This document shows positions 14,432 through 36,883 of a stretch of DNA of 64,000 bases, piece by piece; position 1 is the first letter of the stretch; each line of letters begins with the position of its first letter. Below the pieces are notes generated by a model. The model saw nothing but the letters and a program-made list of their open reading frames with translations, ran no database searches and was not told the origin of the DNA. The stretch lies in NCBI RefSeq assembly GCF_904830925.1, contig NZ_LR882967.1, positions 3,618,106-3,682,105 of the forward strand, in the 5' to 3' direction. This DNA is from Planktothrix pseudagardhii. Its GTDB lineage: Bacteria; Cyanobacteriota; Cyanobacteriia; Cyanobacteriales; Microcoleaceae. Made by a program: the position numbers and the translations under genes.

Positions 14432-15622
14432 TAAGCTGTTAAGCATCTAAATAGGGTATAATGAAAAACCAAGTTTAGAAAAATCAATCAAAAGATGCCT
14501 GCTAAAAATCATTTAAATGAAAAGCAAGTAGAGAAACTACAGAAAAGATTGAAAGAGGAAGAAAATGGACAAATCCGAGAAAGAATCTTGATTTTATTAT
14601 TGCTAAATGATGGTAAAAAGCAAAGTGAAATTGCCAAGTTTTTGGGCTGCTCATTAAACAAAGTATGTTATTGGTGTGTACATGGAGACCCTGACAAATT
14701 AGAAAGCCTAAAAGATGAAAGAATGAAAGGAAATTATAGAAAAGCCACAGACAAATATATAGAGATATTATTAGAAACAGTAGAAAAAGAACCGGAAGAA
14801 TTAGGATATGAATTTGGGAGATGGACAGGAGAAAGATTGGCAACTTATTTAGAACAAATCACAGGAATCAAATTAAGTAGTTCACAAGTGAGAAAGATAT
14901 TAAAGGAAAAAAAGTATGTTTATTTGTGGGCAAAGTATAGCTTAGAAGAGAAAAGAGATCCAGAAAAAAGAAAATTATTTAAAGATAAAATAGAAGAATA
15001 TTTGAAAATAGCAAAAGAAAGTCCAGAACAATTACAGGTATGGTTTTGGGATGAAAGTGGATTTAATTTAAGAGTGATAAAAAGAAAGAATTGGTGTAAA
15101 AAAGGGAAGAGGAAACAGATTAGAGGAGACAGGAGGAAAGGAAGAGTTAATGTGATGGGAGGATTGAGGTACTCGGATAAAAAAAGATTTGTAGAATTTC
15201 TGGATAAAGGAAATGCAGATAATTTTTATCAAGTGTTAAAAAGTTTTTATCAAGAGCTAATTTATGAATGGGTATTAGCGGGAAATCAAGCAGAAGAATT
15301 TGTAGAAAAAGGAGCTAAGATCCTGATTATTCTTGACAATGCAAGTTTTCACAAAAAAGAAGAGTACCTAGAAAAAATTAAAGCAGAAATGCCGAATGTC
15401 TATTTAGAATTTCTTCCAGCATATAGTCCAGATTATAATTTAATTGAATTAGTCTGGCATTCAGCTAAAGAATATATAGCTCATCGACTCTTTAAATCAG
15501 TTGATGAGCTAGAGTGTTTATTACATCAGCTTTTAAATGAAGGACAGTTATCTATTAAATGGGGACGTAAACTTAAAAACAAAGGTAATGCTATAATCAC
15601 AGTTTAAATACACAACAGCTTA
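14432..15622 (+). mobile_element. IS630-family (Tc1/mariner superfamily) insertion sequence, copy 1, approximately 1191 bp including flanking TA
   Basis: Sequence identity with the second copy at 35693-36883 starts at TAAGCTGTTAAGC and ends at ...ACACAACAGCTTA. The ends are imperfect inverted repeats (TAAGCTGTT / AACAGCTTA) flanked by TA, the classical IS630 target duplication. Confidence 0.8.
14495..15607 (+). CDS. IS630-family transposase (HTH + DDE/D)
   Basis: 370 aa with an N-terminal helix-turn-helix. The catalytic region contains WFWDESGF, ILDNASFH and YSPDYNLIE, which together resemble an IS630/Tc1 DD(34)E arrangement. It is identical to ORF 35756..36868. Confidence 0.85.
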   Translation: MPAKNHLNEKQVEKLQKRLKEEENGQIRERILILLLLNDGKKQSEIAKFLGCSLNKVCYWCVHGDPDKLESLKDERMKGNYRKATDKYIEILLETVEKEPEELGYEFGRWTGERLATYLEQITGIKLSSSQVRKILKEKKYVYLWAKYSLEEKRDPEKRKLFKDKIEEYLKIAKESPEQLQVWFWDESGFNLRVIKRKNWCKKGKRKQIRGDRRKGRVNVMGGLRYSDKKRFVEFLDKGNADNFYQVLKSFYQELIYEWVLAGNQAEEFVEKGAKILIILDNASFHKKEEYLEKIKAEMPNVYLEFLPAYSPDYNLIELVWHSAKEYIAHRLFKSVDELECLLHQLLNEGQLSIKWGRKLKNKGNAIITV

Positions 15623-15851
15623 GCCAGTTAGACGAGATAGAAGGTAAAGCATCTAATTGGCTTAAAAGGGGTAAGTTAGCAACGGAGAAGATGGGTGAGA
15701 GAAATTCAATAGATGTCATTGTCTTATCTTTAAGTCCCTATGGTTTAATGGTTGGATTGCTAAGAATAGAATTTTAGCATATAATGAAAAAAACGTAAAC
15801 TCGGTTATTTTCTGCTGATCGGAGTTAATCTTAATAAATCATGACAGAATC

Positions 15852-16106
15852 GTGATCTCAGCAGTCCTAGACGTTATTAACCCAGATTATGCCCATTTTC
15901 TCCTTTCCTCAAACTCTACTTTGATGACCACCAGCAAAATAATATTACTAGAACAAAAGCTGCCTAATGTTCTAACCAAACCCCTGAATTTAATTTTATT
16001 ATTTATTGCTTTATTTTGCCTATCTTTTGGATTTGTGACTGTATTTTTGCTCTTAGAACCTGTGATTACCGCGATTTTAGCTTGGATAATCTTTGCTGAA
16101 CATTAG
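15852..16106 (+). pseudogene. Remnant of an EamA/DMT-family transporter gene (C-terminal fragment)
   Basis: 84-aa ORF ending ...LEPVITAILAWIIFAEH, which looks like the last EamA helix. The surrounding sequence has no matching upstream half. The stop codon overlaps the inverted repeat of the adjacent IS. Confidence 0.4.
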
Positions 16107-17249
16107 ACATCTCCAAAATAGAAAAAAGGAGGGGTAAAAAGATGATAAAATTAAATTTTACCCCGGATTAGAGATGAGTAAATTAAGAGACTATCTGGAC
16201 AAGAATCCCCAGCAAGCAAAAAGGCTATTAGGGATGGAATATGAACAGATGATAGAACTCATTCAAGCTGCGGAGTTATTAGAAGAAGAAAAACGACAGG
16301 AAAAAGAAAAAACTAAAATCAGGTTGATTAAAGCAGGTGGGGGTCGTCGGCAGAAATTATCTGTGGAGGAACAAATCTTACTGACTCTAATTTATCTGCA
16401 TCAAATGCCCACATTTCAAATGTTAGGGTTACAGTTTGAAGTCAGTGAATCAACAGCGAATGATATTTTCCATAACTGGATAAAAATCTTGAGAGAATTA
16501 CTACCAGCGAGTTTGCTAGAGCAAGTAAAAAAAAACGAGAGTGATTGGGAGTGGGTAGAAAAAATTCTGGTGGAATTTGAGTTAGTAGTAGATAGCTATG
16601 AACAGCCCAGGGAAAGACCAACAGACAATGAAGAGCAGAAAAAATATTACTCAGGAAAGAAAAAGACACATACCTTTAAAAATCAAGTCATTGTCATGCC
16701 AAATGGAAAAGAAATAGTGGATGTAGCTGTGGGTTATACCGGAGCAACAAGTGATCTGAAATTGTGGAGAGAAAGAAGCCAGGAATTGGGGAATAATCAA
16801 AAATACAGAGGGGATAAAGCTTATGTAGGAGAAACAGCAATTAATACACCACATAAGAAACCGAGGAATCAAGAGATATCGGCTGAAAAGCAAGAAGAAA
16901 ATCGATTAAAAGCTAAACAAAGGATTGTAGTCGAACATTTAATAAGACTGATAAAAATTTATCGAGTTGCTTCAGAAAGATTTCGGTTAAAGAGGCAAAA
17001 TTATGAAGCAATAATCTTGACAGTATGTGGATTAATAAGATGGCGAATAGGAGCGATTGTATTACCATCTAAGAATTGCCCAGAATTCTTTTGAGAAATG
17101 ATTGCATATCAGAGATAAAATTCATTAGTTATTATTAATGTGACTGAAAAAGCCTATGAATCCGTTACTTTTGGAGAAGCCGGCACAGGAGTGCTAGAGA
17201 TTCCAAAAGTAGCGATAGAGGGCATTTGGAGATTTTCGGAGATGTCTAA
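16103..17249 (+). mobile_element. IS element (IS5-family / Harbinger-like, DDE_Tnp_4 transposase), approximately 1147 bp
   Basis: The left end is TTAGACATCTCCAAAAT at 16103. The right end GGAGATGTCTAA at 17238-17249 is preceded by TTTTCG, which is the imperfect reverse complement TTAGACATCTCCGAAAAT. A single transposase ORF lies inside. Confidence 0.6.
16174..17094 (+). CDS. DDE_Tnp_4-type transposase (IS5 family, PIF/Harbinger-like)
   Basis: 306 aa with an N-terminal HTH-like region. YYSGKKKTHTFKNQ and the downstream D/E blocks are typical of the DDE_Tnp_4 nuclease domain. Confidence 0.7.
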   Translation: MSKLRDYLDKNPQQAKRLLGMEYEQMIELIQAAELLEEEKRQEKEKTKIRLIKAGGGRRQKLSVEEQILLTLIYLHQMPTFQMLGLQFEVSESTANDIFHNWIKILRELLPASLLEQVKKNESDWEWVEKILVEFELVVDSYEQPRERPTDNEEQKKYYSGKKKTHTFKNQVIVMPNGKEIVDVAVGYTGATSDLKLWRERSQELGNNQKYRGDKAYVGETAINTPHKKPRNQEISAEKQEENRLKAKQRIVVEHLIRLIKIYRVASERFRLKRQNYEAIILTVCGLIRWRIGAIVLPSKNCPEFF

Positions 17250-17332
17250 TTAGGAATCGTTAACTGTCTAGCTTTTATCCTGATTCTCCTGGGAATTTAT
17301 ATTGCTAAAACGGGTCAAGGGGCTGAGAAAAG

Positions 17333-18280
17333 TTAAAAATGATCATCAATCAGATATTTCAAAGCGAAACGAGACGCATAAATTATTTCTTTTTTATCGT
17401 TTTGTCCGGGTAAAATTCCCTCATAGAGTAAATTTTCCGCCTCAGTTTTATTACTTAAACGAACAAAGCTTAAATGTTCTTCCCAACCCTGAGATTTAAA
17501 ATGATTTTCATCTATCCCCGTATTCACAGCAAAAACTAAATCGGTTTCGCTGGTAAATGGATTTCCCGCCATCCCAATTAAACGAGTATTACTTTTATCT
17601 AATGGCAAATCAATCCTGGCTTCTTCTTTTAATTCTCGTTGAGCATCTTGATAAAAATTAATCTGCTCAATTTGTTCGTTAAATGTCGCCAAACCTGCTA
17701 CAAAATTAAGGAACCCAGGACGATCAATATTGCCAACACGTTCCCCAATATAAACCGTACCTTGGGCGGTAATGGGAATCACAGTAACCGCTAAAGCCCT
17801 AGCAAAATAAACAAAGGGATCTTGATAAATTTGTAACCCCTTCAACATTAATTTTAACGCTTCTAGTTTAGACCGAGAACAATCTTGATGATAACGGGGA
17901 TAAGTCGTTGGCCCCACCTCTAAGATTAGCCGTTCTTCTTCTCGTTTCCAATAACCCGCAATCTCACCTCCTGACCAGCGAATTTTACGATCATCATAGT
18001 CGTTAGGATTAGTACCATCAGTGATGATCCCGTTGCTAATTTGAGGCTGAATTACCGTTTTTAAATAGGTGTCAAAATCCGTATCAATCAGTTCTCCCTC
18101 TAAATTTTGCGGGCCATAACCTGCTGTTACCTGAATTTGAGTAATATTTTCGACTTGTTGCGGTGTTACCCAATCAATCAAACTGTCATCCTTGATCAAG
18201 GCTTGAGCGAGTTTTTCCCCTTGAGAAATCCCAGTTAATTGATTAATAACCGCCTCTAAAGATTGAAGATAATCCTTCAT
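17333..18280 (-). CDS. Hypothetical protein, likely co-transcribed with the upstream sugar aminotransferase
   Basis: 315-aa ORF with good coding character. Its ATG overlaps the stop of the DegT gene (ATGA at 18277-18280). I recognise no family. Confidence 0.4.
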   Translation of the reverse strand: MKDYLQSLEAVINQLTGISQGEKLAQALIKDDSLIDWVTPQQVENITQIQVTAGYGPQNLEGELIDTDFDTYLKTVIQPQISNGIITDGTNPNDYDDRKIRWSGGEIAGYWKREEERLILEVGPTTYPRYHQDCSRSKLEALKLMLKGLQIYQDPFVYFARALAVTVIPITAQGTVYIGERVGNIDRPGFLNFVAGLATFNEQIEQINFYQDAQRELKEEARIDLPLDKSNTRLIGMAGNPFTSETDLVFAVNTGIDENHFKSQGWEEHLSFVRLSNKTEAENLLYEGILPGQNDKKEIIYASRFALKYLIDDHF

Positions 18281-19386
18281 GATCCCGAATAAAATTCACG
18301 GATCTTTTCAATCACATAATTTTGTTCTTCTGGTTTCAATCCATAAGATGAAGGTAAAGAAATGCCCCGTTCATAAGCTTGGGCACTAATAGGATAATTT
18401 CGCTCAGGATTCATCCATTCTTGATTTTGATAACAAGGTTGTAAATGTAATGGACAGAAAAATCGCCGCGTTTGAATGCCATTTTCCGCTAAATAATCGG
18501 CTAATTCAGCCCGTTGATTGGTATAACAGGAGGTAAACCAATGAACAGGTTCGCAACGCGAATCAATCGGCATAATTTGCAGTTCAGGAATATCTTTTAG
18601 TCCGGCTACATAGCGATCATAAATCTCTTGTTTGCGTTGAATAATGGCAGGTAATTTTTGTAACTGAGCAACTCCAATTGCAGATTGCATTTCCGTAATC
18701 GAAAAGTTAAACCCAATATGTTCATGTACAAAGGTTCCCCGATGATCTCGACCGTGATTTTTAAGACGACGACAGGATTGAGCAATAATATCACTATTGG
18801 TTAAAATAATGCCGCCTTCACCACAGGTAATGGTTTTATTCCCATAAAAAGAAATGGCACTCACATCTCCCCGAAGCCCAATATGCTCCCCTTTAAACTG
18901 TACCCCAATCGATTGAGCGGCATCTTCAATAACTTTTAAATGGTGACGAGTAGCAAACTCAATAATTTTTTCCATGTCTGCACTTTGTCCATATAAATGA
19001 ACAGGCATAATGGCTTTTGTTCGTTCAGTTATTAACGCTTCAGCTTCTCTAACATCTATACCCAAGTTATCTTTCTCAATATCACAAAATATCGGTGTTG
19101 CTCCGGTCATAATAATGGCATTAGAAGACGCAACAAAGGTTAAATCAGGAACCAAAACTTCGTCCCCAAAACCAATTCCTAATGCTTTTAATCCACAATA
19201 TAACGCGGTGGTTCCATTGGATGTAGCGATCGCATATTTTGCTCCCGTTAAACTTTTAATCCCTTCTTCAAATTCTTGGGTAATTTTATGCTCGGTCAGA
19301 TAAGTCGATTCAATCACTCGTTTAAGTTGCACCAGTTCACTTTCATCAATCCAGGGTTCAATTTGAATAATTTTGGGTTTCGACAT
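18277..19386 (-). CDS. DegT/DnrJ/EryC1/StrS-family PLP-dependent sugar aminotransferase
   Basis: 369 aa. The family fold runs throughout. The PLP lysine region is SFYGNKTITCGEGG, and DAAQSIG and HLYGQ motifs are present. Confidence 0.85.
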   Translation of the reverse strand: MSKPKIIQIEPWIDESELVQLKRVIESTYLTEHKITQEFEEGIKSLTGAKYAIATSNGTTALYCGLKALGIGFGDEVLVPDLTFVASSNAIIMTGATPIFCDIEKDNLGIDVREAEALITERTKAIMPVHLYGQSADMEKIIEFATRHHLKVIEDAAQSIGVQFKGEHIGLRGDVSAISFYGNKTITCGEGGIILTNSDIIAQSCRRLKNHGRDHRGTFVHEHIGFNFSITEMQSAIGVAQLQKLPAIIQRKQEIYDRYVAGLKDIPELQIMPIDSRCEPVHWFTSCYTNQRAELADYLAENGIQTRRFFCPLHLQPCYQNQEWMNPERNYPISAQAYERGISLPSSYGLKPEEQNYVIEKIREFYSGS

Positions 19387-19710
19387 GATCTCAATTCAAA
19401 ATATGAAAATGGGTATTCCTAGTTAGGAACGCACGGGATTTTAACCTTACTTAGCCTTTATACCACAAAAGTTAAACTCTCGTTAAAGTTTAAATTACTT
19501 TACTTTAACCCAATTTCGATAGGAAATAGGTAAAAGTAAAATACTACAAAAGAGGTTCTCCCGTACTTCAGATGATCCAGTGACGTTATCCTCTCACTCC
19601 ATAGGCTTTTTCAGCTTAGTGCTTCCAGAACTTTAGATTAAATTTTACTTCTTATATCGAGTATTGGGGACAGACCAAAGCCCAGTAAGAAACCCCCATT
19701 CTAAATTTTA

Positions 19711-20706
19711 TTAACCAAATAAAAATAACCACAGAGGTAAGGTTAATAATAAGAGTGTAGAACCCATCGCTAAATTTGTAACCGCTAATTCCCGATCTAA
19801 ATTAAAGGCTTCAGCTAAAACTAAGGTTGCAAAAGCGGGAGGAGTTGCCATTTGAAGCACTAAAACTAATAAAGGAGATCCGGTTAATCCCAATAGCATT
19901 AATCCATAGCCTAATGCCAAAGGTACAATTAACATTTTAATTCCTAAACTTACAGAGGCAGTTTGAAAATAGCGCCAAGAATGAAGCTGACTTAAACGCA
20001 TTCCCATCAAGACTAATGTTAACGCAACACTACCCCAAGCAATTCCCTTTAATCCCTGTTCAATCGGATCAGCTACCGGAATATTTCGTACCATTAAACC
20101 GATCACCATACTAATTAAAGCCGGGTTCGTTAATGATACTGCAACTAATTGCCAAGGGTCTTGTTTTCCCATTCCAAATCTTGCCGCTAAAGCCACGCCT
20201 AATCCATAGGCGCCAATGACCGTTCCTAGTCCATCATAAAACACCGCCCAACCGAAATATTGGGGGCCGACTAAGGCTAAACTAACCGGAAAACCAATAT
20301 ATCCCGTATTCCCCACCATTGAAGCTAATAAAAAACTGCCTTGAGCAGGTAAAGATTGGGGTAAAATATTGAATTTAGGAATACGGCTTTGCCAATGTAA
20401 CCCCATCCAAGCTAATCCAGCACCGAGGAAAATAGCAGCCCAAGCCACTAAGGGAGCAATCCAAATCGAACCGGATAAATCCGCTTTTCTTAAAAATGCC
20501 ATAATTGCGATCGGAACAATTGCCCAATATAAAATTTTTCCTAAATAATAGGGAACAATAGCGGGTAATTTCCGACCTAAAATCCATCCGATTAAAACGC
20601 CACCTATTAGCCATTCATAAAGTGTTAGAAGTTGAGTTACAGAATGAGACATAAAGATTAGGTGTTGACTGTTGAGCATGAACGGTTGACGGTTAGCCGT
20701 CAACAT
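19711..20706 (-). CDS. AEC-family (auxin efflux carrier / malate permease-like) membrane transporter
   Basis: Approximately 310 aa with 10 predicted TM helices in two 5-TM halves separated by a short loop. The start is probably the internal MSHSVTQLL... Confidence 0.55.
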   Translation of the reverse strand: MLTANRQPFMLNSQHLIFMSHSVTQLLTLYEWLIGGVLIGWILGRKLPAIVPYYLGKILYWAIVPIAIMAFLRKADLSGSIWIAPLVAWAAIFLGAGLAWMGLHWQSRIPKFNILPQSLPAQGSFLLASMVGNTGYIGFPVSLALVGPQYFGWAVFYDGLGTVIGAYGLGVALAARFGMGKQDPWQLVAVSLTNPALISMVIGLMVRNIPVADPIEQGLKGIAWGSVALTLVLMGMRLSQLHSWRYFQTASVSLGIKMLIVPLALGYGLMLLGLTGSPLLVLVLQMATPPAFATLVLAEAFNLDRELAVTNLAMGSTLLLLTLPLWLFLFG

Positions 20707-20745
20707 GAAGTATTATAAAATTCAGCCTTTAATGGATGTGCAGGA

Positions 20746-21618
20746 GTGAAGCCGTTGAAGAATTCTAGTCTGCCTAAACAAGCCGAAACTGTCGTGGATG
20801 GATCAACAGAAGAGATTCCAGAGGCGATACGAGATCTCCCCGTTGTGACCGTGGCTTCCTCCCGACCGTCCCCCAGACCCGGACTCTTCTGGAAAATGTT
20901 GGGGTTAGCCGTCGTTGCATTCTGTACGGCTTTAGCCATTAATTATCAATTTGGAATTCTCTCTCCTAAAGCTTATATTCCTCTGTTAGAACCCACCCCA
21001 GAACCCAAGAGTTCTACGGCTTCTTCCCCTTCACCTACTCCCAGTGCTTCAGCAACTCCAAGCGCCGCCGCGTCCCCAACAGCCTCCCCAAGCTTACCGG
21101 ACAATTTATTGGGCCATCTCCCCTACGAAGAAGCTCCCGCCGCAGAGTTAGAAAGTATTACCCCCGATGGGAGTCATCGGTTACGCAAAGCAGCCGCCCA
21201 AGCTTATCAGCAAATGGAGCAAGCGGCTTTAGCCAGTGGGGTGAGTTTAGTTCCGATTTCCAGTTTTCGCACGGTTAAAGAACAGGAAGGAATCTTTTTT
21301 GAAGTCAAAGCGCAACGGGGACAAGTCGCAACCAAACGCGCAGAGGTAAGCGCGCCTCCGGGATATAGTGAACATCATACGGGTTATGCCATTGATATTG
21401 GCGATGGAAATATGCCCTCAACGAACTTAAATGTCAGTTTTGAACAAACTCAAGCTTTTCAATGGTTAAAAGATAATGCCGCTTTTTATAGTTTTGAGTT
21501 ATCCTTTCCTAAAGATAATCCCCAAGGGGTGAGTTATGAACCTTGGCATTGGCGGTTTGTCGGAGATCGCCAGAGTTTGGAAACGTTTTATAAAGCCAGA
21601 AAGCTGAAGAAAAGCTGA
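20746..21618 (+). CDS. VanY / peptidase M15B-family D-alanyl-D-alanine carboxypeptidase-like protein
   Basis: N-terminal TM/signal segment followed by a Pro/Ser/Ala/Thr-rich linker. The catalytic region SAPPGYSEHHTGYAIDIGD (SxHxxGxAxD) and a C-terminal EPWHWR are characteristic of M15B. Confidence 0.7.
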   Translation: MKPLKNSSLPKQAETVVDGSTEEIPEAIRDLPVVTVASSRPSPRPGLFWKMLGLAVVAFCTALAINYQFGILSPKAYIPLLEPTPEPKSSTASSPSPTPSASATPSAAASPTASPSLPDNLLGHLPYEEAPAAELESITPDGSHRLRKAAAQAYQQMEQAALASGVSLVPISSFRTVKEQEGIFFEVKAQRGQVATKRAEVSAPPGYSEHHTGYAIDIGDGNMPSTNLNVSFEQTQAFQWLKDNAAFYSFELSFPKDNPQGVSYEPWHWRFVGDRQSLETFYKARKLKKS

Positions 21619-22295
21619 TGAGAACGACCAGTTTAAACTTGATTGCAATTAGTGTTTTCTGCATAACCCTATCGGCGTTATTGAGTCCGGTTTTCAATAT
21701 TTCGCCTTTTATTCCGGCGAGTGTAACTTGTTTTTTATTAGGGGTTGCGACATTAGATGTTTTTCAATTTCAAGGTCAAGGTGCTAATTTATTAGTAGAT
21801 TGGTTAGCGGGAACTTCGGCTTCCACTCGGGAACGAATTTTACACCATGAAGCCGGACATTTTTTAGTCGCCTATTTGATGGAAATTCCCATTCAGGGAT
21901 ATGCGTTAAATGGTTGGGAAGCTTTCAAACAGGGATTAAAGGCTCAAGGCGGGGTGCAGTTTGCTGATCAACGGTTATGGGAACAATTGCAGCAAGGTCA
22001 ACTTTCATCACGGGTTTTAGATCGTTATTGTACGGTTTGGATGGCGGGAATCGCCGCAGAAACGTTAGTATTTCAAAAGGCGGAGGGAGGACAGGAAGAC
22101 CGAGAAAAAATTACCGCAATTTGGACTCAGTTAAACCGTCCGATGAGTGAAGCCAAAGTTAAAGAACGTTGGGCTATTTTACAAGCTAAAACCTTAATTC
22201 AAAATCACGAAACGACCTATTATCGCTTGGTAGAAGCCATGAAAAATCGGGCTTCTGTTGAAGAGTGTTATCAAATTATTAAGGTTGAGGATTAA
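21618..22295 (+). CDS. Membrane-anchored protein with an FtsH-like (M41) HEXXH peptidase-domain motif and no AAA module
   Basis: Two N-terminal TM helices, then ILHHEAGHFLVAYL, which resembles the FtsH zinc-binding HEAGHA motif. The start overlaps the VanY-like stop (ATGA), suggesting translational coupling. Confidence 0.4.
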   Translation: MRTTSLNLIAISVFCITLSALLSPVFNISPFIPASVTCFLLGVATLDVFQFQGQGANLLVDWLAGTSASTRERILHHEAGHFLVAYLMEIPIQGYALNGWEAFKQGLKAQGGVQFADQRLWEQLQQGQLSSRVLDRYCTVWMAGIAAETLVFQKAEGGQEDREKITAIWTQLNRPMSEAKVKERWAILQAKTLIQNHETTYYRLVEAMKNRASVEECYQIIKVED

Positions 22296-22314
22296 GGTTT
22301 AACTCTAAGATAAA

Positions 22315-24010: not shown

Positions 24011-24056
24011 ACTACACATCGACGAGTGACCGTTTAAAACTAGACTAATTTAATCT

Positions 24057-25294: not shown

Positions 25295-26740
25295 TTGATA
25301 CAAAATCAGTACACTGATCCCCCGGCTCCTCCTCCTATGCTTACAGCTAGTTCTGAATTTGTCCAACTCTGTCGCACGCAATTGTCATTGACGGCGAGTT
25401 TAGGTGCGTCCTTGAGTGTGGTGTATTTGGCTGAGGCTTGGGTGGATGAGGAACATCAGAAATTAATTCCGATCGCCACTTATCCTGAAACCTCCCTGGA
25501 AGATTTGGATATTCCGGGTTTGATGCGCTTTCCGACCCTGTTAACTCCAACTCTACCTCGTTTGTTAACAACAGAAGAAATTACCAAAACCTGGATTTTG
25601 TTACCTGCGGTGGATATCAATGATTTTATAGAAGCCGAAGCACAGGGAGAGCAACCCCTAGAAGAAGAGGAAAGTTGGCAACAACGCAGTCAAACGGTGT
25701 TACCTTTAATTCAAGAAGAGGTGGTCTTAGGCTTTTTAGTAACGGGACGCAATGATCGTTCCTGGAACCCAGAGGAATATGGCCAATTGCAAGGAATTGC
25801 CCATACCTTAGCCCTGGGTTGTATTTTAGATCAACGCTCCCAATGGTTCCAACAACAATTAAGCCGACAACAACACCTACAGGCGCAACAAGCCGATGCC
25901 CTTCATAATATCTTTCATCAACTCAAAAGTCCCCTCACGGCGGTGCGTACCTTTGGAAAATTATTATTAAAGCGGTTACTACCGGAAGATAAAAACTATC
26001 CAATTGCCAATAGTATTTTACGAGAAAGCGATCGCATTCAAGAGTTGTTACAACAAGCTGATCAAACTTTAGACCGCACAGAACCTGCTGTAAGCTTACC
26101 CCTAACCGTTGATTCTGTCTTAATTTCCATGCCGCCTAGGGAAGAAGCCACGTCTGCGTCCTCAATGTTAACCTTGTTACCCGCTTGGGATCAACTCGAA
26201 TTCCTAGAATTGTCTGAGGTCTTACAACCGTTAATTTTATCAACCCAAGCGATCGCCGAAGAACGACAGCTTCAATGTTTTGTTGACCTTCCCCCTAAAT
26301 TACCCGTGATCCAAGGGAATCATAAAGCCTTGCGAGAAGTCTTGAGTAACCTCCTCGATAATGCCTTAAAATATACCCCACCAGGCGGAAAACTTTGTAT
26401 TCGAGTGCAACTGACTCAAAAACGGAAATCTCAACCCCTGCAAGTAGGAATTGGCATTAGTGATACTGGCCCCGGTATTCCACCCGAAGATTTAACTCAT
26501 TTATTTGAACGTCACTATCGAGGTGTCCAAGGACGTTCTGAAATTCCGGGGACAGGGTTAGGGTTAGCGATCGCAAAAACCTTAGTCGAACAAATGCAGG
26601 GAAAGATTGAAGTGTTCTCTCCTGTTAATTCGGTTTGGGTCTCCAAGGAGATGCTTTCTCGGGGGAATATTCCTAGAGGAACTACATTTATCGTTTGGTT
26701 AAAGGGTGTTACTCCTGATCAAGAATTGAACAGAAGTTGA
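25295..26740 (+). CDS. Sensor histidine kinase with an N-terminal GAF-like domain
   Basis: The H-box is LHNIFHQLKSPLTAVRTFGKLL. The HATPase_c region contains LSNLLDNALKYT, ISDTGPGIP and GTGLGLAIAKTLVE. Confidence 0.8.
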   Translation: MIQNQYTDPPAPPPMLTASSEFVQLCRTQLSLTASLGASLSVVYLAEAWVDEEHQKLIPIATYPETSLEDLDIPGLMRFPTLLTPTLPRLLTTEEITKTWILLPAVDINDFIEAEAQGEQPLEEEESWQQRSQTVLPLIQEEVVLGFLVTGRNDRSWNPEEYGQLQGIAHTLALGCILDQRSQWFQQQLSRQQHLQAQQADALHNIFHQLKSPLTAVRTFGKLLLKRLLPEDKNYPIANSILRESDRIQELLQQADQTLDRTEPAVSLPLTVDSVLISMPPREEATSASSMLTLLPAWDQLEFLELSEVLQPLILSTQAIAEERQLQCFVDLPPKLPVIQGNHKALREVLSNLLDNALKYTPPGGKLCIRVQLTQKRKSQPLQVGIGISDTGPGIPPEDLTHLFERHYRGVQGRSEIPGTGLGLAIAKTLVEQMQGKIEVFSPVNSVWVSKEMLSRGNIPRGTTFIVWLKGVTPDQELNRS

Positions 26741-28567: not shown

Positions 28568-29716
28568 TTGAGTGAGATTTGTACCCCAGTCGCACCAGGT
28601 CAACCGTTGACACCTTACCAGAAAATTGGTTTGGAATCAGTCACTCGTCTACATGGCGGACGGGATGTGGTACTGGCGATTGACCTAACGGAAAGCGTCG
28701 GTTTGAATGATGAAGGTCATTTGCGTTTACGTCAAATTGTTGAAGATAGCTTAAAATCAGGAGACACCGTTTATGTTGTGCCTTTTGCTACAAAAACTAA
28801 CCCTTCAACACCTGAGATCAACCCTTTAACTTTAGAAACTGCAATTCAGTTTAAAGGGAAAGCCGATGTAGAAAAGATTTTACAATTAATTCCCTTTCAG
28901 CCTGACCTGAGATTACAAAATACCGATATTCAACAAGCTGAGTTAACGATTTATCAGGGTTTAGCAGATCTCAATCAATGTCGTTTAACCCAGAATCAAC
29001 CGATTAAACCGCAATCGATTGTTTGGATTACCGATGCACCGTTATTTACAAAATCCCCTGCTACCTCTGAAGAATGGACGGAAACCCCAGCAGACAGTCC
29101 TTTCCGAATAGCAACTTCTCCAGAAACACAACAGCGCCAAGAGTGGTTAAATCAATTACCTTTAAATCAGCGATCGCTTCCGATTAAAACTCAAGAACAG
29201 CGACAATATAACCTAACAATTGTTGATATTCCTCCGAATGTTCAAGAGTTCTGTACTCCTACCCCCGGACAGAAAGAAACTTGTTTAGTTTCTCCTTATT
29301 TATGGAAACAGTTATGGCTACCCGGATTAATTTTAGGAATTTTAATTCTTGCTAGTGTCGGGATGGGAATTAAAATTTATCGTTTGAATAAAAAATGGAA
29401 ACTGATGGTTAATTTTGATGATGATGATCAGGTAGCAGATCAAACCTGCTCTCTCGGTAATCATCAAAGAATTGCCATTGGTGAATATGAATCTGGTTGT
29501 CAGGATACCATTGATTTACCTGGAGCAGAAGTTCGGGCTTATTTAGTCAGAAAAGGAGAAAAACTTTATTTAGAACCGACGAACAATAGCCGGATTGAAT
29601 ATCAAGACAAAATTGTCGATCAAAAAATCCAAATAACCAGAAGTAGGATAAATTTTAATTGCCCTAATCCTAAACCTCCCAAAAACTACAGATTAACCAT
29701 TAAAATTCAAAAATAA
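28568..29716 (+). CDS. vWA-domain (MIDAS DxTxS) protein with a single TM helix and a C-terminal FHA-like domain
   Basis: The N-terminal ...DVVLAIDLTESVGLND... fits the vWA MIDAS motif (DxS/TxS). A Pro/Thr/Gln-rich linker follows, then the TM helix LWLPGLILGILILASVGMGI. The C-terminal approximately 100 aa (...RIAIGEYESGCQDTIDLPGAEVRAYLVRKGEKLYLEPTNNSRIEYQDKIV) follows the FHA pattern. The ORF begins with a non-ATG (TTG) start in the track. Confidence 0.5.
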   Translation: MSEICTPVAPGQPLTPYQKIGLESVTRLHGGRDVVLAIDLTESVGLNDEGHLRLRQIVEDSLKSGDTVYVVPFATKTNPSTPEINPLTLETAIQFKGKADVEKILQLIPFQPDLRLQNTDIQQAELTIYQGLADLNQCRLTQNQPIKPQSIVWITDAPLFTKSPATSEEWTETPADSPFRIATSPETQQRQEWLNQLPLNQRSLPIKTQEQRQYNLTIVDIPPNVQEFCTPTPGQKETCLVSPYLWKQLWLPGLILGILILASVGMGIKIYRLNKKWKLMVNFDDDDQVADQTCSLGNHQRIAIGEYESGCQDTIDLPGAEVRAYLVRKGEKLYLEPTNNSRIEYQDKIVDQKIQITRSRINFNCPNPKPPKNYRLTIKIQK

Positions 29717-29737
29717 ACTAACCAAAAGGGATTTATC

Positions 29738-32700
29738 ATGCAAGCTAATGATTATCAACTGCAAGGAGTTCAACGCACAATTTGTATCGGATTAGGAGGA
29801 ACAGGACGAGATGTTTTAATGCGAATTCGGCGGTTAATTGTAGAAAAATATGGAGATTTAACAGAACTACCAATTGTTAGTTTTGTTCATATTGACACAG
29901 ATAAAACTGCCACTCAGTCCGCCAGTTTAAAAACAGGTAATACCTATCGGGGTGTTGATTTAAGTTTTCGAGATTCTGAAAAAGTAAATGCCATTTTAAC
30001 TTCCGCAGAAGTAACCAATTTTGTGCGAGGTGTAGAACAGCGTTCTAAATCCAATCGTTCTGGGCCGTTTGATCATATTTCTCGCTGGTTTCCGCCTCAA
30101 TTACTTCGTAATATTAGAGCCGTTGAAGAAGGAGCAAAAGGAATTCGACCTGTGGGAAGATTAGCGTTTTTTCATAATTATCAAAAGATCAAAACTGTCA
30201 TTGAAACCGCAGCAAAACGGACAATGGGTCATGAAGCAACCTTACTGAAAGCCAGATTAAAACTTGAACCCGGATTAAATATTTTTGTGATTGGTTCCCT
30301 CTGTGGCGGTACAGGAAGCGGAATGTTTTTAGATGTTGCTTATAGTTTAAGGAAATCCTATGGAGATAAAGGCACGCAATTACTCGGATATTTAGTGGTA
30401 AGTCCACAGTTATACAGCAATGCGTCCTATATGAATGCTAATACTTATGCAGCCTTAAAAGAACTCAATTATTATAGCAGTGCGGGGACTCGATTTGAAG
30501 CTTGTTATGATATGCAAAATTTGGTAATTGTTCAGGAACCTCGCGCCCCATTTGATTATACTTATTTAATTTCTAATGAAACGAACGGTGAATATACAAT
30601 CTTAGAACAACAAAAATTATGTAATGTAATTGCCCATAAAATCGCGTTAGATTTTATCGGAGAATTAGCCCCTGTTGCTAAAGGAATGCGGGATAATTTA
30701 CTAAACCATTTAATTCAATCGGATAATCATCCCCGTCCTAATACTCAAGGATATTTAACCTTTGGCTTGGCTGCGATTTATTTTCCTCGTGAAATTATCG
30801 TAAAAATTGCCTTAAATCGAATTAGTTTAAAATTGGTTAATTTTTGGTTAAATGGAGAAGGTCAAAGTCCCGATCCTCAATTAATTATTGAACAATTTTT
30901 GATTAAATATAATTGGTATAGCGATTTAATCCAACGGGATGGGTTTAAAGAACGACTTGCTGGAGGCGTTCAAGAAGGGAGCAAAAACTTTTCTACGACC
31001 TTAACTAAATTCAGAGAGAAATTAATTCAAAAAATTAATGAGTGTAGAAATAGTGAAGATCGGCTCAGTTTAAAAAACAACTTATTACGAGAATTACGAG
31101 AACAGTTCAGAAAAGTTCTGCCGGGAGAAACGGAAACAACAAGAGGAATTTGGTTAACTCGGTTAATGCAGGTACAACCGCTCATCGCTCAACAATTGAA
31201 AAATCATATTAATGAATTTATTGAGGAATTAATGACCCCTAGCAATCCCAAATTTTCGACTAAAAGTGTTCGTGATTGGTTAGAGGCGATGCAAACAGAA
31301 TTAAACACCTATCAACGTCAGTTAGAGGAAGAAATTAGTCAAGGGGAAGGAATGAAAAAAAATGAAGACTTAGAGAAAAAATTGCGAGATTTAGAACAGA
31401 ACATGGATGAGATAGAGCAAAGAATTGAACTCCCCATACTGAATCGTAAAAATGCCGATATTCAGAGATTAGCGAGAAACGTTGTTCAAAGTATTATGCA
31501 GTTAATTCAGCATAATTTCAAATTAGCAGTAACTCAAGAAACATTAAAAATCGTCAATGATTTGCAAAAGTATGTTAGAGATTGTTCGACTGAAGTTGCC
31601 ACCTTTAGCCGGATGATCGAAAATTTAAAAACGAATTATGAGAAAGAACAAAATGATCTGATAAATTCTAATTTTAATGAAATGAGTGGAGAAGCTATTT
31701 TTGCTCAAGAAGATATTGAAGAATGTTATCAAACCTTATTACCTGATTTAGAGTTTCGCTCTGCATTGGTGTTAGTGAGTAAAGATATTACAGAGGCATC
31801 TGGGGTAGGAGAATCGATCTGCTATTTAATTAATCGTACCACTGGAGAGCAACTGAAAACAGAAATTGATCAAAAAATAGATGGTGAATTTGGTTCTCGG
31901 AGTAACCAAATTGTTAAATCTGTGATTAAGCGTTTTATTCAAAAATATTCTGGGTCAATTCGTCCTACCCGTTTAGGACAAATTATTGAGCAGGCAGAAC
32001 CTTTATTACGTTTAAATGTGAGTGATCCTTATTTTTCTAATCTTTCGGATAAACGAAAAGAATTTATTGGATTTAAAGATACCGATGAGGTAGAAGTAAA
32101 TCAGTTTAAAATGACTCTGACTCGTGATTTGGGAATCGACCCAACGGCTTTAAAACCGACTCAAGCTGAAGATCAAATTTTAATTGTTCGGGAATATGGT
32201 GGGTTTCCTTTACGGTTGATTAATGGTTTAGAAGAAATCAGAAATCATTATATCCGAGAACAAAATAAAGATGGCTCAACTTGTCATTCTGATTATCAGA
32301 TCCCCTTTACTGATATTATCCCCCCAGATGCTAGACTCATGGAAGAATTGGAAGATGTTTTCTATCCTTGTTTAGCATTTCAGTTAATTGTTAAAAATCC
32401 TAAAAATCAAGGCTTAGAGTTTCAATATTACGATAATTTACGAGACTATTATTATACAGCAGAACTGAACCCAATTTGGAATCAAGCGTTAGAAGAACTA
32501 GCGAATCACCGAGAAATGACGAAAACGTTAAACGAGTTATTAGAGGAGGAAATTAATCAGATTCGTCAAAATCCTGATCTCTGGAAAAGTCAATATTTAC
32601 CCAGATTACAGCAATTTGTGGATTATGTGGATAATTTACCTGAATCTAATCCTAATTATCTTTATAAATCAACGGTTGTGGGGACTCCGGGTACAATTAA

Positions 32701-32965
32701 TAATTTAGGACATGAAGGAGTTATTAATCGTTTTCGTCGAAAAATTCAGGAAAGTCTAACTAAGACTGGAAGTTTACCAACATCGGTTAATGACGATTCT
32801 GCCGCTTTAGTAAAGCGTGGAGAAAATTCCAGAGATTTTAACCAAAGTGATGACAGTTTAGAGGCAAAATTAAGGCAGCTAAAACAAAAATTAGATCAGG
32901 GGTTCATTACTCAAAAAGGATATGAATTTGAGAAAGAAGAAATTCTACGGAAATATGGTTGTTAA
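29738..32965 (+). CDS. Giant tubulin/FtsZ-superfamily GTPase (FtsZl1-like) with a long alpha-helical extension and a C-terminal SHOCT-like motif
   Basis: 1075 aa. The N-terminal glycine loop RTICIGLGGTGRDVLMRI is T1/phosphate-binding-like. GSLCGGTGSGMFLDVAY contains the tubulin/FtsZ signature GGTGSG. NYQK is followed by a T7-like region. The remaining approximately 650 aa are Glu/Lys/Gln-rich helical. The C-terminal ...LRQLKQKLDQGFITQKGYEFEKEEILRKYGC matches the SHOCT short C-terminal domain pattern. Confidence 0.7.
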   Translation: MQANDYQLQGVQRTICIGLGGTGRDVLMRIRRLIVEKYGDLTELPIVSFVHIDTDKTATQSASLKTGNTYRGVDLSFRDSEKVNAILTSAEVTNFVRGVEQRSKSNRSGPFDHISRWFPPQLLRNIRAVEEGAKGIRPVGRLAFFHNYQKIKTVIETAAKRTMGHEATLLKARLKLEPGLNIFVIGSLCGGTGSGMFLDVAYSLRKSYGDKGTQLLGYLVVSPQLYSNASYMNANTYAALKELNYYSSAGTRFEACYDMQNLVIVQEPRAPFDYTYLISNETNGEYTILEQQKLCNVIAHKIALDFIGELAPVAKGMRDNLLNHLIQSDNHPRPNTQGYLTFGLAAIYFPREIIVKIALNRISLKLVNFWLNGEGQSPDPQLIIEQFLIKYNWYSDLIQRDGFKERLAGGVQEGSKNFSTTLTKFREKLIQKINECRNSEDRLSLKNNLLRELREQFRKVLPGETETTRGIWLTRLMQVQPLIAQQLKNHINEFIEELMTPSNPKFSTKSVRDWLEAMQTELNTYQRQLEEEISQGEGMKKNEDLEKKLRDLEQNMDEIEQRIELPILNRKNADIQRLARNVVQSIMQLIQHNFKLAVTQETLKIVNDLQKYVRDCSTEVATFSRMIENLKTNYEKEQNDLINSNFNEMSGEAIFAQEDIEECYQTLLPDLEFRSALVLVSKDITEASGVGESICYLINRTTGEQLKTEIDQKIDGEFGSRSNQIVKSVIKRFIQKYSGSIRPTRLGQIIEQAEPLLRLNVSDPYFSNLSDKRKEFIGFKDTDEVEVNQFKMTLTRDLGIDPTALKPTQAEDQILIVREYGGFPLRLINGLEEIRNHYIREQNKDGSTCHSDYQIPFTDIIPPDARLMEELEDVFYPCLAFQLIVKNPKNQGLEFQYYDNLRDYYYTAELNPIWNQALEELANHREMTKTLNELLEEEINQIRQNPDLWKSQYLPRLQQFVDYVDNLPESNPNYLYKSTVVGTPGTINNLGHEGVINRFRRKIQESLTKTGSLPTSVNDDSAALVKRGENSRDFNQSDDSLEAKLRQLKQKLDQGFITQKGYEFEKEEILRKYGC

Positions 32966-33027
32966 CTCATTTTAATTTAGTTACATTGATTTGAATCTAA
33001 GCTCATGTTCAATCTTGAGGATATTTT

Positions 33028-34599
33028 ATGTTGTTTCCTTCTTTTCCTCCTTTACCGCCTTTGTTAATCATTTTGATCGGGATATTTGTGTTTATTCCCT
33101 CGATCATTACCCTCTATTATCGCTGGAATCTTTATCAACATTTAACCACTCAAGCGAATAAAATTTATCAGATTATCAATAAACGGGAGCTTGAACTCCC
33201 GCCTGCGATTGTACAAGTTTTAGAACAGAGTTTTGCAGAATCCAGCCAAAATTTAGAACAAGTGAACACGGCGGCTTTGATTGATCAAGCCTACAGCCAA
33301 GAAAAGGTTTTAGGGAAATCCTGCGAACAAATTGAATATTGGTGTCGAATTATTCCGAATTTACTCCTGGCTTTTGGATTAATTGGAACCTTTATTGGAA
33401 TTACGGTCAATTTGGGTTCTTTGAGTCAAACTATTAGTCAAAGTCAAGCAACGGATGTTAGTCAGTTAGTAGAGGAATTAAAACAACCCCTAGAAGGAAT
33501 GGCGATCGCTTTTATTACCAGTTTAGCTGGGTTATTGTGTAGTGCATTATTAACTGTTTTAAACTTTTTATGGAATACGAGTCTAGCGAAATATCGTTTA
33601 ACGGTTTCTTTAGAACATTACCTCGATAATATTTATTATTCATCCTTAAATGGTCAAACTCGGTTGGATAAAGTTGTTAAAGGAATGTCGAGTGAATTTA
33701 AAGATTTTTTAGATCGATTTGGTATTACTGTTAGAGATGCGGTGGAATCTGCCATGAGAGATAATATTCATCAAATTACAAAAGCGAATGTAGAAGCGAG
33801 TGAATTAGCTCTAAAAGTCTATAGTCAATTATCCAATGCTACAGGAACGTTAGAAAGGGGAGCTAGAGAGTTTCAAACCGCCACAGAAAGTTTTACAAAT
33901 GCGGTACAAGTGAGTAACACAACGGCTGATAAATTAGAACAAGTTGCTCAAGGTTTTGAACAAAGTGAATTTCCTAAACAATTATCAATAATCGCTACTG
34001 ATTTTGGAGAGAATCAAAAGAATTTTTCTGACTCAGCATTCGGTTTATTTCAAACGGTTAAATCTTTGGAAACAATATTAAATCAACTTCAGATCTTTAC
34101 AGAGCAGTTATTAAAAACGGAAACAAAATTAAGTGAACTTAATCAAAGTTCCTTACAAGTTTTAGAGTTAAATCAAATTAATCAACAATCCCTAGTTGAA
34201 ATTATTCCTCAACTGCAACAAGGAGGAAAAAGCTTGGAGTTAAGTTCTCAAACGTTAGAGAATATCCAAAACAAACTTATTGATAAATCCGATCATTTAG
34301 AAGGTATTCATAAACAATTAGAAACCTTAGTTAAAACCCTTAATAGTTATACAAATACAGTGAATTTTGAACTAGAATCTTTAAGTAAAATGATGAATAA
34401 GCTCATTAAAGAACAAACAAATAGTAGTCAGTCCTATTCACAAGTCTTAGCGGATAAATTAGAAGCAGCAATTAAACCTAATATTAAGTATATTATTGAG
34501 ATGAAATCTGATTTATCTCAGGTACTTAAACTCTTAAAAGAACAAAGCGGTAATCCGGGAATTAAGAAAAATAAACCAAAATTTTGGGAAAGTAAATAA
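33028..34599 (+). CDS. MotA/TolQ/ExbB-family proton-channel protein with a long C-terminal coiled-coil tail (ZorA-like architecture)
   Basis: 523 aa. The TM core has the family motif LLLAFGLIGTFIGITVNLG and LEGMAIAFITSLAGLLCSALLTVLN (compare LGLLGTVIGI / A..TT.GL of MotA/ExbB). Approximately 330 C-terminal residues are Gln/Ser/Asn/Glu/Leu-rich and predicted helical. Confidence 0.65.
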   Translation: MLFPSFPPLPPLLIILIGIFVFIPSIITLYYRWNLYQHLTTQANKIYQIINKRELELPPAIVQVLEQSFAESSQNLEQVNTAALIDQAYSQEKVLGKSCEQIEYWCRIIPNLLLAFGLIGTFIGITVNLGSLSQTISQSQATDVSQLVEELKQPLEGMAIAFITSLAGLLCSALLTVLNFLWNTSLAKYRLTVSLEHYLDNIYYSSLNGQTRLDKVVKGMSSEFKDFLDRFGITVRDAVESAMRDNIHQITKANVEASELALKVYSQLSNATGTLERGAREFQTATESFTNAVQVSNTTADKLEQVAQGFEQSEFPKQLSIIATDFGENQKNFSDSAFGLFQTVKSLETILNQLQIFTEQLLKTETKLSELNQSSLQVLELNQINQQSLVEIIPQLQQGGKSLELSSQTLENIQNKLIDKSDHLEGIHKQLETLVKTLNSYTNTVNFELESLSKMMNKLIKEQTNSSQSYSQVLADKLEAAIKPNIKYIIEMKSDLSQVLKLLKEQSGNPGIKKNKPKFWESK

Positions 34600-34733
34600 A
34601 TTTAGGACTGATGCTGGAGATTCTCGGCTAGATCAGGAGATTGATCCTGAGTTCAGGTTTTCATATTAGTTACCCGGTTTCTTGGGTACAAGTTGGTAAG
34701 TTTTGTAATTATTATTATTAAAGGTTTAAAATT

Positions 34734-35456
34734 ATGCGTCGTCCGACTCAAATTAAAAATTCATCGGAAGATTTGAATGTCTGGCAAGCATTTACAGATT
34801 TAATGTCTAATGCTTTTTTAATTATGAGCTTGTTTTTATTGTTAGCCATTGTTAAATCATCGTTATTAACTTCTAATTCAAAAGAAAAAGATCAGAAAAT
34901 TAAAGGCTTAGAATTAACAGTTGGTTCATTAAAAAACGAAATTGAACGATTAAAAGCTCCACCAGTCATTGTGATTAAAGATTCTGATCGAGATGCACAG
35001 GGGCGATCTTTAAAATTTGAGACAGGTAAGGCAGATTTACCGGAAGGGTTGCGAATTTTTATTGAAGGGAATGTGGTGGAAAAATTAGAGGAATTTTCTA
35101 AAGTTTATCAAGGTTATGTAGTGGATGTAATTGGACATACTGATGGTCAAGAAACCTTTAATCCTGCTAGTAATTTAGATCAAATCTTAGAACAAGTTGC
35201 ACAGGGGAACCAACCTGTTAAAAATCTCAAACCCGGTTCCAATGCTGATTTAGGATTAATGCGCTCTTTAGCAGTTGTTAAAAAACTCCAAGCTATTCAA
35301 GAACAAGGTCGTTTAAAGGGGTTAAAATTTAGAGCTTATTCAGCCGCACAATTATTTTTACCTTCAGGACAATATGCGTCGCAAAATCGTGCTTCTGATG
35401 AAACAAGAAGACGTATCGAAATTCGCTTTACTCCCCCAGGAGTTGAACAATATTAA
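34734..35456 (+). CDS. MotB/OmpA-family partner: single TM with conserved Asp, C-terminal OmpA-like peptidoglycan-binding domain
   Basis: 240 aa. The N-terminal WQAFTDLMSNAFLIMSLFLLLAIV resembles the MotB/ExbD plug-TM segment (Asp in FTDLMS). The C-terminal VIGHTDGQE...NADLGLMRSLAVVKKLQ...RRRIEIRF matches the OmpA_C consensus. Confidence 0.65.
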   Translation: MRRPTQIKNSSEDLNVWQAFTDLMSNAFLIMSLFLLLAIVKSSLLTSNSKEKDQKIKGLELTVGSLKNEIERLKAPPVIVIKDSDRDAQGRSLKFETGKADLPEGLRIFIEGNVVEKLEEFSKVYQGYVVDVIGHTDGQETFNPASNLDQILEQVAQGNQPVKNLKPGSNADLGLMRSLAVVKKLQAIQEQGRLKGLKFRAYSAAQLFLPSGQYASQNRASDETRRRIEIRFTPPGVEQY

Positions 35457-35692
35457 TAGGGTGATACCAAAGTAATCTGGAACTGTCGCCGGCGGGATGC
35501 ACGGAGACTCTAAACGGACGTGGAGGAAACGTAAGACTATCTCAAGATAGCAGCACCCAAAGAAGCGTCAACCCGCCAAAATTTAAGCAGTTGTCAATTT
35601 TTGTAACTTAAATAGATGGAATCTCTGTCCGTTCACGGCGGAGAGGATGTCAACAATGGTAGGCTTTTCTTAATATCCAAAAAATCCTCCAA

Positions 35693-36883
35693 TAAGCTGT
35701 TAAGCATCTAAATAGGGTATAATGAAAAACCAAGTTTAGAAAAATCAATCAAAAGATGCCTGCTAAAAATCATTTAAATGAAAAGCAAGTAGAGAAACTA
35801 CAGAAAAGATTGAAAGAGGAAGAAAATGGACAAATCCGAGAAAGAATCTTGATTTTATTATTGCTAAATGATGGTAAAAAGCAAAGTGAAATTGCCAAGT
35901 TTTTGGGCTGCTCATTAAACAAAGTATGTTATTGGTGTGTACATGGAGACCCTGACAAATTAGAAAGCCTAAAAGATGAAAGAATGAAAGGAAATTATAG
36001 AAAAGCCACAGACAAATATATAGAGATATTATTAGAAACAGTAGAAAAAGAACCGGAAGAATTAGGATATGAATTTGGGAGATGGACAGGAGAAAGATTG
36101 GCAACTTATTTAGAACAAATCACAGGAATCAAATTAAGTAGTTCACAAGTGAGAAAGATATTAAAGGAAAAAAAGTATGTTTATTTGTGGGCAAAGTATA
36201 GCTTAGAAGAGAAAAGAGATCCAGAAAAAAGAAAATTATTTAAAGATAAAATAGAAGAATATTTGAAAATAGCAAAAGAAAGTCCAGAACAATTACAGGT
36301 ATGGTTTTGGGATGAAAGTGGATTTAATTTAAGAGTGATAAAAAGAAAGAATTGGTGTAAAAAAGGGAAGAGGAAACAGATTAGAGGAGACAGGAGGAAA
36401 GGAAGAGTTAATGTGATGGGAGGATTGAGGTACTCGGATAAAAAAAGATTTGTAGAATTTCTGGATAAAGGAAATGCAGATAATTTTTATCAAGTGTTAA
36501 AAAGTTTTTATCAAGAGCTAATTTATGAATGGGTATTAGCGGGAAATCAAGCAGAAGAATTTGTAGAAAAAGGAGCTAAGATCCTGATTATTCTTGACAA
36601 TGCAAGTTTTCACAAAAAAGAAGAGTACCTAGAAAAAATTAAAGCAGAAATGCCGAATGTCTATTTAGAATTTCTTCCAGCATATAGTCCAGATTATAAT
36701 TTAATTGAATTAGTCTGGCATTCAGCTAAAGAATATATAGCTCATCGACTCTTTAAATCAGTTGATGAGCTAGAGTGTTTATTACATCAGCTTTTAAATG
36801 AAGGACAGTTATCTATTAAATGGGGACGTAAACTTAAAAACAAAGGTAATGCTATAATCACAGTTTAAATACACAACAGCTTA
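35693..36883 (+). mobile_element. IS630-family insertion sequence, copy 2, identical to copy 1 and in the same orientation
   Basis: 35693-36883 matches 14432-15622 base for base across the compared sequence and carries the same TA-flanked imperfect inverted repeats. The flanking sequences differ on both sides. Confidence 0.8.
35756..36868 (+). CDS. IS630-family transposase (identical to 14495..15607)
   Basis: The 370-aa translation is identical to copy 1. Confidence 0.85.
   Translation: MPAKNHLNEKQVEKLQKRLKEEENGQIRERILILLLLNDGKKQSEIAKFLGCSLNKVCYWCVHGDPDKLESLKDERMKGNYRKATDKYIEILLETVEKEPEELGYEFGRWTGERLATYLEQITGIKLSSSQVRKILKEKKYVYLWAKYSLEEKRDPEKRKLFKDKIEEYLKIAKESPEQLQVWFWDESGFNLRVIKRKNWCKKGKRKQIRGDRRKGRVNVMGGLRYSDKKRFVEFLDKGNADNFYQVLKSFYQELIYEWVLAGNQAEEFVEKGAKILIILDNASFHKKEEYLEKIKAEMPNVYLEFLPAYSPDYNLIELVWHSAKEYIAHRLFKSVDELECLLHQLLNEGQLSIKWGRKLKNKGNAIITV

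Follow-up and report, generated by a model that had tools for sequence, protein, structure and literature searches.

When two identical insertion sequences (ISs) lie in the same orientation some 21 kb apart, do they form the ends of one mobile unit, or did each arrive separately? The question is raised by a 64,000-nucleotide stretch of a genome catalogued as Planktothrix pseudagardhii (contig NZ_LR882967.1, positions 3,618,106 to 3,682,105 of the forward strand; the whole stretch is called the window below), in which two copies of an IS630-family element, copy A at 14432–15622 and copy B at 35693–36883, both on the plus strand, bracket an interval of 20 kb. A first-pass annotation, made from the letters of the window, had allowed for either a composite transposon or a recent IS expansion. 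Comparison with a close relative in which both copies are absent favours the second answer: the two copies went independently into TA dinucleotides of resident chromosomal DNA, one of them with a deletion scar, and separate, recent insertion amid recent activity of several IS families is very probably the history of this locus.

Both copies are 1,191 bp long and equal at every position, in agreement with the base-for-base identity annotated before. The identity ends abruptly, without a single extra matching base on the left or on the right, and the copies are spaced 21,261 bp from start to start. Each consists of a TA, the sequence AGCTGTTAAGCATCTAAA...TTTAAATACACAACAGCT and a second TA, leaving an element proper of 1,187 bp (14434–15620 in copy A). 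Copy A lies inside a conserved hypothetical gene of 198 amino acids, copy B between genes. The element ends in AGCTGTTaaGcATcTAAA and AGCTGTTgtGtATtTAAA, short terminal inverted repeats that are imperfect (AGCTGTT...AACAGCT); the first nine positions, including the TA, match perfectly, as do about 14 of 18 within the element, and both the size and the repeats are those of the IS630 family. The ends are confirmed independently by at least ten copies in Planktothrix sp. PCC 11201, which align to positions 1–1191 only and have flanks that are all different. A TA is present on both flanks of copy A, of the PCC 11201 copies (BLAST matches reach both TAs) and of a copy in Planktothrix sp. FACHB-1365, where it was read directly.

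The transposase gene of copy A (14495–15607, plus strand) is a single uninterrupted open reading frame (ORF) of 370 amino acids, and that of copy B (35756–36868, plus strand) has the same sequence. The protein contains a DDE_3 domain (residues 181–339, E-value 7.6e-36), preceded by matches to HTH_33 (2.9e-15), HTH_32 and HTH_23; an N-terminal helix-turn-helix and a DDE_3 domain in one ORF of about 340–380 residues is the arrangement expected for the IS630 family. Insertion into TA with duplication of that dinucleotide, another family trait, is seen at copy B, where a single TA in the relative is replaced by TA-IS-TA in the window. The identical copies, their intact ORFs and their strain-specific sites suggest that the element is active in transposition.

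The relative was reached by exact look-up of a 1,075-residue Tubulin_2 protein encoded between the two copies, which led to assembly GCA_904830955 with its 6.27-Mb chromosome LR882970.1. This assembly has been identified as Planktothrix tepida PCC 9214 (Entfellner et al. 2022, PMC9366434). Three overlapping stretches of LR882970.1 (L001, L002 and L087) were aligned to the window, and positions 1–44243 of the window were found to be collinear with them, except at the IS sites and at one intergenic replacement, 40610–40728, where 119 bp between a convergent methyltransferase-like gene and dnaJ stand in place of an unrelated 30 bp in PCC 9214. The bracketed interval itself (15623–35692) is 99.4–100% identical to LR882970.1 and collinear with it, at a conserved locus. 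The background divergence of the two strains is about 0.1%, with zero to three differences in most 1-kb bins, and both IS630 copies are absent from PCC 9214. The annotation had taken the perfect identity of the copies as a sign of very recent transposition, and their absence from a strain so little diverged bears this out; the youth of the copies explains their identity.

Between 7.7 and 44.2 kb, 134 single-nucleotide polymorphisms (SNPs) separate the strains, and their density is unchanged at both IS630 copies. One 560-bp tract of a histidine-kinase gene accounts for 63 of them, and the 3' end of dnaK for about 30. A history of the interval different from that of its flanks was considered, and the SNP profile gives no such signal; the clusters are these two tracts, which are unrelated to the IS positions. 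The tracts, at 25978–26539 (about 11% diverged) and 41787–42229 (about 7%), look like imported recombination tracts.

The site of copy B is the simpler of the two. In PCC 9214, the empty site reads ...AATCCTCCAA-TA-ACCTCAACAC..., in which the TA occurs once and no footprint is left, and the window has the same flanks with a TA on each side of the IS. A 91-kb metagenomic contig, whose Tubulin_2 protein is 91% identical in amino-acid sequence, likewise has the adjacent 240-residue gene and sugar-acid kinase gene with the same 268-bp spacer and without the IS. By these junctions, copy B is a simple intergenic insertion. It lies 29 nucleotides upstream of the start codon (36913) of the kinase gene (SBD_N and NBD_C domains) and separates this gene from its upstream region, which may have an effect on the kinase. 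Read-through from the transposase gene of copy B into the kinase gene is possible, with no terminator-like site between them; in consensus scans around both copies, promoter and terminator matches were no more numerous than in shuffled sequence, and the scans are uninformative on this point.

At the site of copy A, PCC 9214 has 336 bp (L002 13941–14276) in place of the IS, with TA on both sides; this segment starts just after the TA next to the left IS end and finishes with the TA next to the right one. The 336 bp are the middle of an intact ORF of 197 amino acids in PCC 9214. Since full-length homologues of this protein occur in Planktothrix serta (93% identical), Planktothrix mougeotii (91%) and other Oscillatoriales, it is PCC 9214 that preserves the ancestral state, and the 336 bp have been deleted from the window. 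Both ends of the gene survive on the minus strand of the window: an N-terminal remnant of about 33 codons at 15621–15719 (L002 13842–13940 maps to 15719–15621 at 100%) and a C-terminal remnant of about 50 codons at 14282–14433 (L002 14277–14435 maps to 14440–14282). TA occupies about 7% of positions near copy A, and a random deletion stopping exactly at an intact IS terminus is unlikely. Copy A thus appears to come with an IS-mediated, TA-to-TA deletion of 336 bp. The most likely route would be two insertions in the same orientation, 334 bp apart, followed by recombination between them, while an aberrant transposition event may be the alternative origin. The 198-residue gene has probably lost its function through copy A.

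In P. serta PCC 8927, the 198-residue gene lies directly beside the genes for Mem_trans, VanY and, further on, CCB1, DUF3155 and a histidine kinase, so that synteny crosses the copy A site at the level of the genus. The surroundings of this gene vary. A block of about 14.5 kb between the 198-residue gene and a UbiE-type methyltransferase–ParE pair, compared with window positions 1–14236, is present in P. tepida and absent from P. serta PCC 8927 (L088); it concerns sugar modification and transport, with glycosyltransferases, GtrA, an acyltransferase, a sulfotransferase, an ABC exporter, BT1 and SnoaL. P. tepida, unlike P. serta, also has DegT and a 315-residue gene between the 198-residue gene and Mem_trans (window 17333–19386). 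The gene that copy A interrupts is thus flanked by a variable islet on each side.

The interval shows no sign of being transposon cargo and is ordinary chromosomal DNA. Its genes encode, in order, a DegT aminotransferase, Mem_trans, VanY, a leucine-rich repeat protein, PadR, CCB1, DUF3155, a histidine kinase and the four proteins of an FtsZ-like (Tubulin_2) module, and the gene content of the window is cyanobacterial (CCB1, DUF3155). The 91-kb metagenomic contig keeps the order Mem_trans-VanY-...-PadR-CCB1-DUF3155-histidine kinase-...-Tubulin_2, followed by 520- and 240-residue proteins and the kinase. In P. serta PCC 8927 the four-gene module lies on a separate contig among other neighbours, as it does in Planktothrix agardhii PCC 7805, which makes the interval a mosaic of blocks with different histories rather than one unit. 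Full-length homologues of the Tubulin_2 protein are 75–76% identical in Planktothrix, 65% in Kamptonema and about 55–60% in Nostocales; these identities track phylogeny, indicating vertical inheritance. No tRNA gene that would suggest an integrative island was found in the window, and its GC profile contains no discrete block coinciding with the interval.

The module (28568–35456, plus strand) comprises a 382-residue protein, the 1,075-residue Tubulin_2 protein (PF13809, E-value 3e-109), a 523-residue protein and a 240-residue protein, and its four genes are kept as a group in P. agardhii, P. serta and the 91%-identical relative. Proteins with PF13809 form the 'FtsZ-like' group (Makarova and Koonin 2010, cited in PMC9871819). 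The proteins encoded beside Tubulin_2 have no significant Pfam match; the 523-residue protein has a weak MotA_ExbB match with an E-value of 0.0027, below the cut-off. Elsewhere in the window (60497–62906, minus strand), a sensor kinase gene with CBS, GAF, HisKA and HATPase domains is present as two ORFs, 61656–62906 and 60497–61513, split by a one-base frameshift in the GAF domain near 61650; it is either a pseudogene or the result of a sequencing error.

The IS630 copies are not the only recent arrivals. The second IS and the gene remnant that had been annotated within the interval are a probable ISL2-type element of the IS5 family (16105–17249, plus strand) and the EamA-like remnant that it splits. 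The element encodes a transposase of 306 residues (16174–17094) with DDE_Tnp_4 (1.6e-30) and HTH_Tnp_4 domains and has 10-bp terminal repeats, AGACATCTCC and GGAGATGTCT. The remnant, an ORF of 112 residues on the plus strand, is divided into a 5' part (15852–16104) and a 3' part (17250–17336). PCC 9214 is without this element, and its uninterrupted site reads gaacatTTAggaatc. The intact 112-residue ORF of PCC 9214 (L002 13371–13709) has a weak EamA match covering the C-terminal end of the domain only, so it was already a fragment before the ISL2-type element arrived. At the junctions, the empty site CAT-TTA-GGA has become CAT-TA|IS|TAA-TTA-GGA; the expected 3-bp duplication of TTA is not seen and the overlap is 1 bp. 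Either a base was lost at the left, or the element does not end where its terminal repeats suggest. The gene length of 921 bp and the assignment to IS5 match 'Group 5' of Entfellner et al., which has 14–19 copies in lineage 3, and other Group 5 rows of Table S4 in that study are typed 'IS5 ssgr ISL2' (PMC9366434).

A further, IS5-like element lies at about 5594–7247, with a transposase ORF at 5703–7205 (plus strand, about 500 residues) containing DDE_Tnp_1_2 and DUF772. It has 15-bp terminal repeats starting GGGCTTGCTGAAAAA and is flanked by a duplicated TATTTA target. The insertion splits a BT1-family transporter gene into 5060–5683 and 7218–8048 and probably inactivates it; in PCC 9214 the gene is intact (442 residues) and the element absent. 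Judged by transposase gene length alone, it may be the ISMae6-like 'Group 18' of the same survey (1,494 bp; PMC9366434). In 44 kb, therefore, the strain of the window carries four insertions of its own, from three IS families and all absent from PCC 9214, and there are none specific to PCC 9214. The recent IS expansion suggested by the first-pass annotation fits these counts.

The IS630 element is not new. By its transposase gene and overall similarity, it is a variant, at new insertion sites, of the published Planktothrix IS630 'Group 17', the transposase gene of which is 1,113 bp long (Entfellner et al. 2022, Front Microbiol 13:901762, PMC9366434), as in the window; the start of the reference sequence differs from the window element at a few positions. 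Group 17 was found in 57 full-length copies in one lineage-3 strain and in 3–9 copies in two lineage-2 strains, and more than 90% of its copies are full length (PMC9366434), which fits an active element; the window element shares this multi-copy, mostly full-length character. Table S4 of that study puts the lineage-3 copies in P. pseudagardhii No713, and, together with the 'one strain' of its Table 3, this means that PCC 9214 has no Group 17 copy (PMC9366434). The strain of the window, which is of the P. tepida type, differs in this respect, since it carries copies although none are listed for P. tepida PCC 9214.

The transposase shares a 90% cluster with proteins named 'IS630 family transposase' from Planktothrix rubescens, P. 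agardhii, P. pseudagardhii, PCC 11201 and FACHB-1365. It is 99.7% identical to that of FACHB-1365, about 99% to that of P. pseudagardhii No713 and 95% to those of P. rubescens and PCC 11201. At the DNA level, the window element shares 97.7% identity with the FACHB-1365 copy and 95% with the PCC 11201 copies, which sets it apart as a slightly different variant. That the FACHB-1365 copy has only one amino-acid change at 97.7% DNA identity suggests purifying selection on the transposase. An exact-protein look-up, in a collection that includes the PCC 9214 genome, returned no record of the window transposase sequence, and a 39-nucleotide exact pattern from the left end of the IS had zero matches in genome contigs and metagenome contigs. 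The methyltransferase and DegT proteins of the window were likewise without an identical entry.

How the locus came about can be proposed as follows. Since the divergence from PCC 9214, several ISs would have been active in the lineage of the window, and two copies of one IS630 element would have inserted separately at TAs about 21 kb apart, with the region already in place. Insertion would have been by cut-and-paste into TA by the Tc1/mariner-like DDE transposase, the donor site presumably being restored from a sister chromosome copy. The order of these events, and a local hop of one copy from the other, are matters that we can only infer.

The geometry of the locus would also allow the two IS630 copies to have arrived, or to move, together with the enclosed 20 kb as a unit of 22.5 kb from the left end of copy A to the right end of copy B: the same IS is present twice around a DNA segment, the copies are direct and identical, their transposase genes are intact and the outermost ends are a proper pair of left and right inverted repeats (IRL/IRR). 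Target duplications at the outer ends only or at each copy, on which the annotation had hoped to decide, cannot discriminate, since IS630 always targets TA and all four junctions are TA under either model. What decides is the relative, which has this interval at the corresponding locus but neither of the copies, the very situation that the annotation had named as speaking for two separate insertions into a core region. Moreover, both IS-site junctions are conserved in more distant relatives, SNP density is continuous over the boundaries, copy A has its own deletion scar within a gene, and the would-be cargo consists of housekeeping-type, vertically inherited genes (CCB1, DUF3155, the FtsZ-like module) with identities that track phylogeny. 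Transposition efficiency of Tc1/mariner/IS630 elements falls with length, and composites of them are rare. We therefore reject a composite transposon as the origin of the locus and consider one very unlikely.

The empty sites could be read the other way round, with old insertions kept identical by gene conversion and then both lost from PCC 9214 by precise excision. Cut-and-paste elements can excise, and cyanobacteria of this kind are regarded as polyploid, which might allow one copy to convert the other. Excision, however, cannot recreate the 336 bp of ancestral coding sequence that PCC 9214 holds at the copy A site, and only one TA, without a footprint, is present at its copy B site; a more distant relative is also without copy B, no Group 17 copy is listed for PCC 9214, and the exact transposase is absent from a collection that includes this genome. 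Such a history is extremely improbable. Perfect repeats of 1.2 kb are also a classic source of misassembly in short-read data, and one IS might have been placed twice or a repeat misresolved. All four junctions are nevertheless continuous with sequence matching PCC 9214 up to the TA, the order of sequence inside and beyond the pair follows that of the reference, and a misplacement would yield neither a TA duplication at a perfect empty site nor a TA-to-TA deletion, which leaves an artefact of assembly with a very slim chance.

Some points weigh against two wholly independent, recent insertions. Two copies within 21 kb is somewhat above random scatter: by our arithmetic, 57 copies in 6.6 Mb give about 0.55 expected per 64 kb and a P(2 or more) of about 0.1, which is only slightly out of the ordinary if the element is about as numerous as in No713. 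Part of the excess may stem from local hopping or a regional preference, and reinsertion near the donor is known for Tc1/mariner elements. The expansion is deduced from 44 kb compared with one relative. Gene conversion could have preserved the identity of older copies, though great age is hard to square with their absence from PCC 9214, and rare circular or deleted forms may exist at the locus.

What the pair might now do is a separate matter. The suggestion of the annotation that the direct copies can mediate deletion is reasonable in principle, with the 336-bp TA-to-TA deletion at copy A as a small-scale analogue, but the copies show no sign of moving the block. Homologous recombination between them would delete about 21 kb including CCB1, and this is the only significance left to the pair as such. 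CCB1 is, by its Pfam annotation, a cofactor-assembly factor for cytochrome b6f, and loss of the 21 kb would probably be selected against. Transposition of the whole 22.5 kb by its outer ends is geometrically possible but improbable. It is unlikely that the 22.5-kb stretch is now unstable or mobilisable, by outer-end transposition or by an IS–IS loop-out circle carrying CCB1 and the FtsZ-like module, or, in a related proposal, that the P. tepida lineage received Group 17 horizontally from a P. pseudagardhii-like donor in a burst still under way. Were the stretch unstable, the polyploid filament population would be heterogeneous at the locus, and copy A, with its TA-to-TA deletion, would offer a precedent on a small scale.

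Two independent, recent insertions are routine IS activity and matter little beyond the genome dynamics of strains. They do provide a worked example of how a look-alike composite transposon can be told apart from independent insertions. A close relative of PCC 9214 has picked up no fewer than four ISs, from three families, within 44 kb and at about 0.1% divergence, which adds to what has been published on IS-driven microevolution in Planktothrix.

The element itself resembles members of the IS630/Tc1-mariner superfamily in every respect considered, with a single ORF encoding helix-turn-helix and DDE_3 domains, a length of about 1.2 kb, short imperfect inverted repeats and a duplicated TA target; nothing about it is notably different, and its continuous ORF needs no programmed frameshift. 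The locus shares with the composite transposons Tn10 and Tn5 the presence of two identical IS copies around some 20 kb, but here the would-be cargo is resident DNA that relatives have without the ISs, the orientation of the copies is direct, not inverted, and nothing points to their moving together with the interval. A different comparison is with the IS-mediated inactivation and deletion described for Planktothrix, for instance by ISPlag1 and ISPlr1 in the mcy cluster (PMC9366434). Other IS families are involved in the window, and the targets are unremarkable, with no toxin or peptide cluster among them; as in the mcy cases, strain-specific ISs interrupt genes, here the 198-residue gene, the BT1-family gene and the EamA remnant, and one of the insertions is accompanied by a small deletion.

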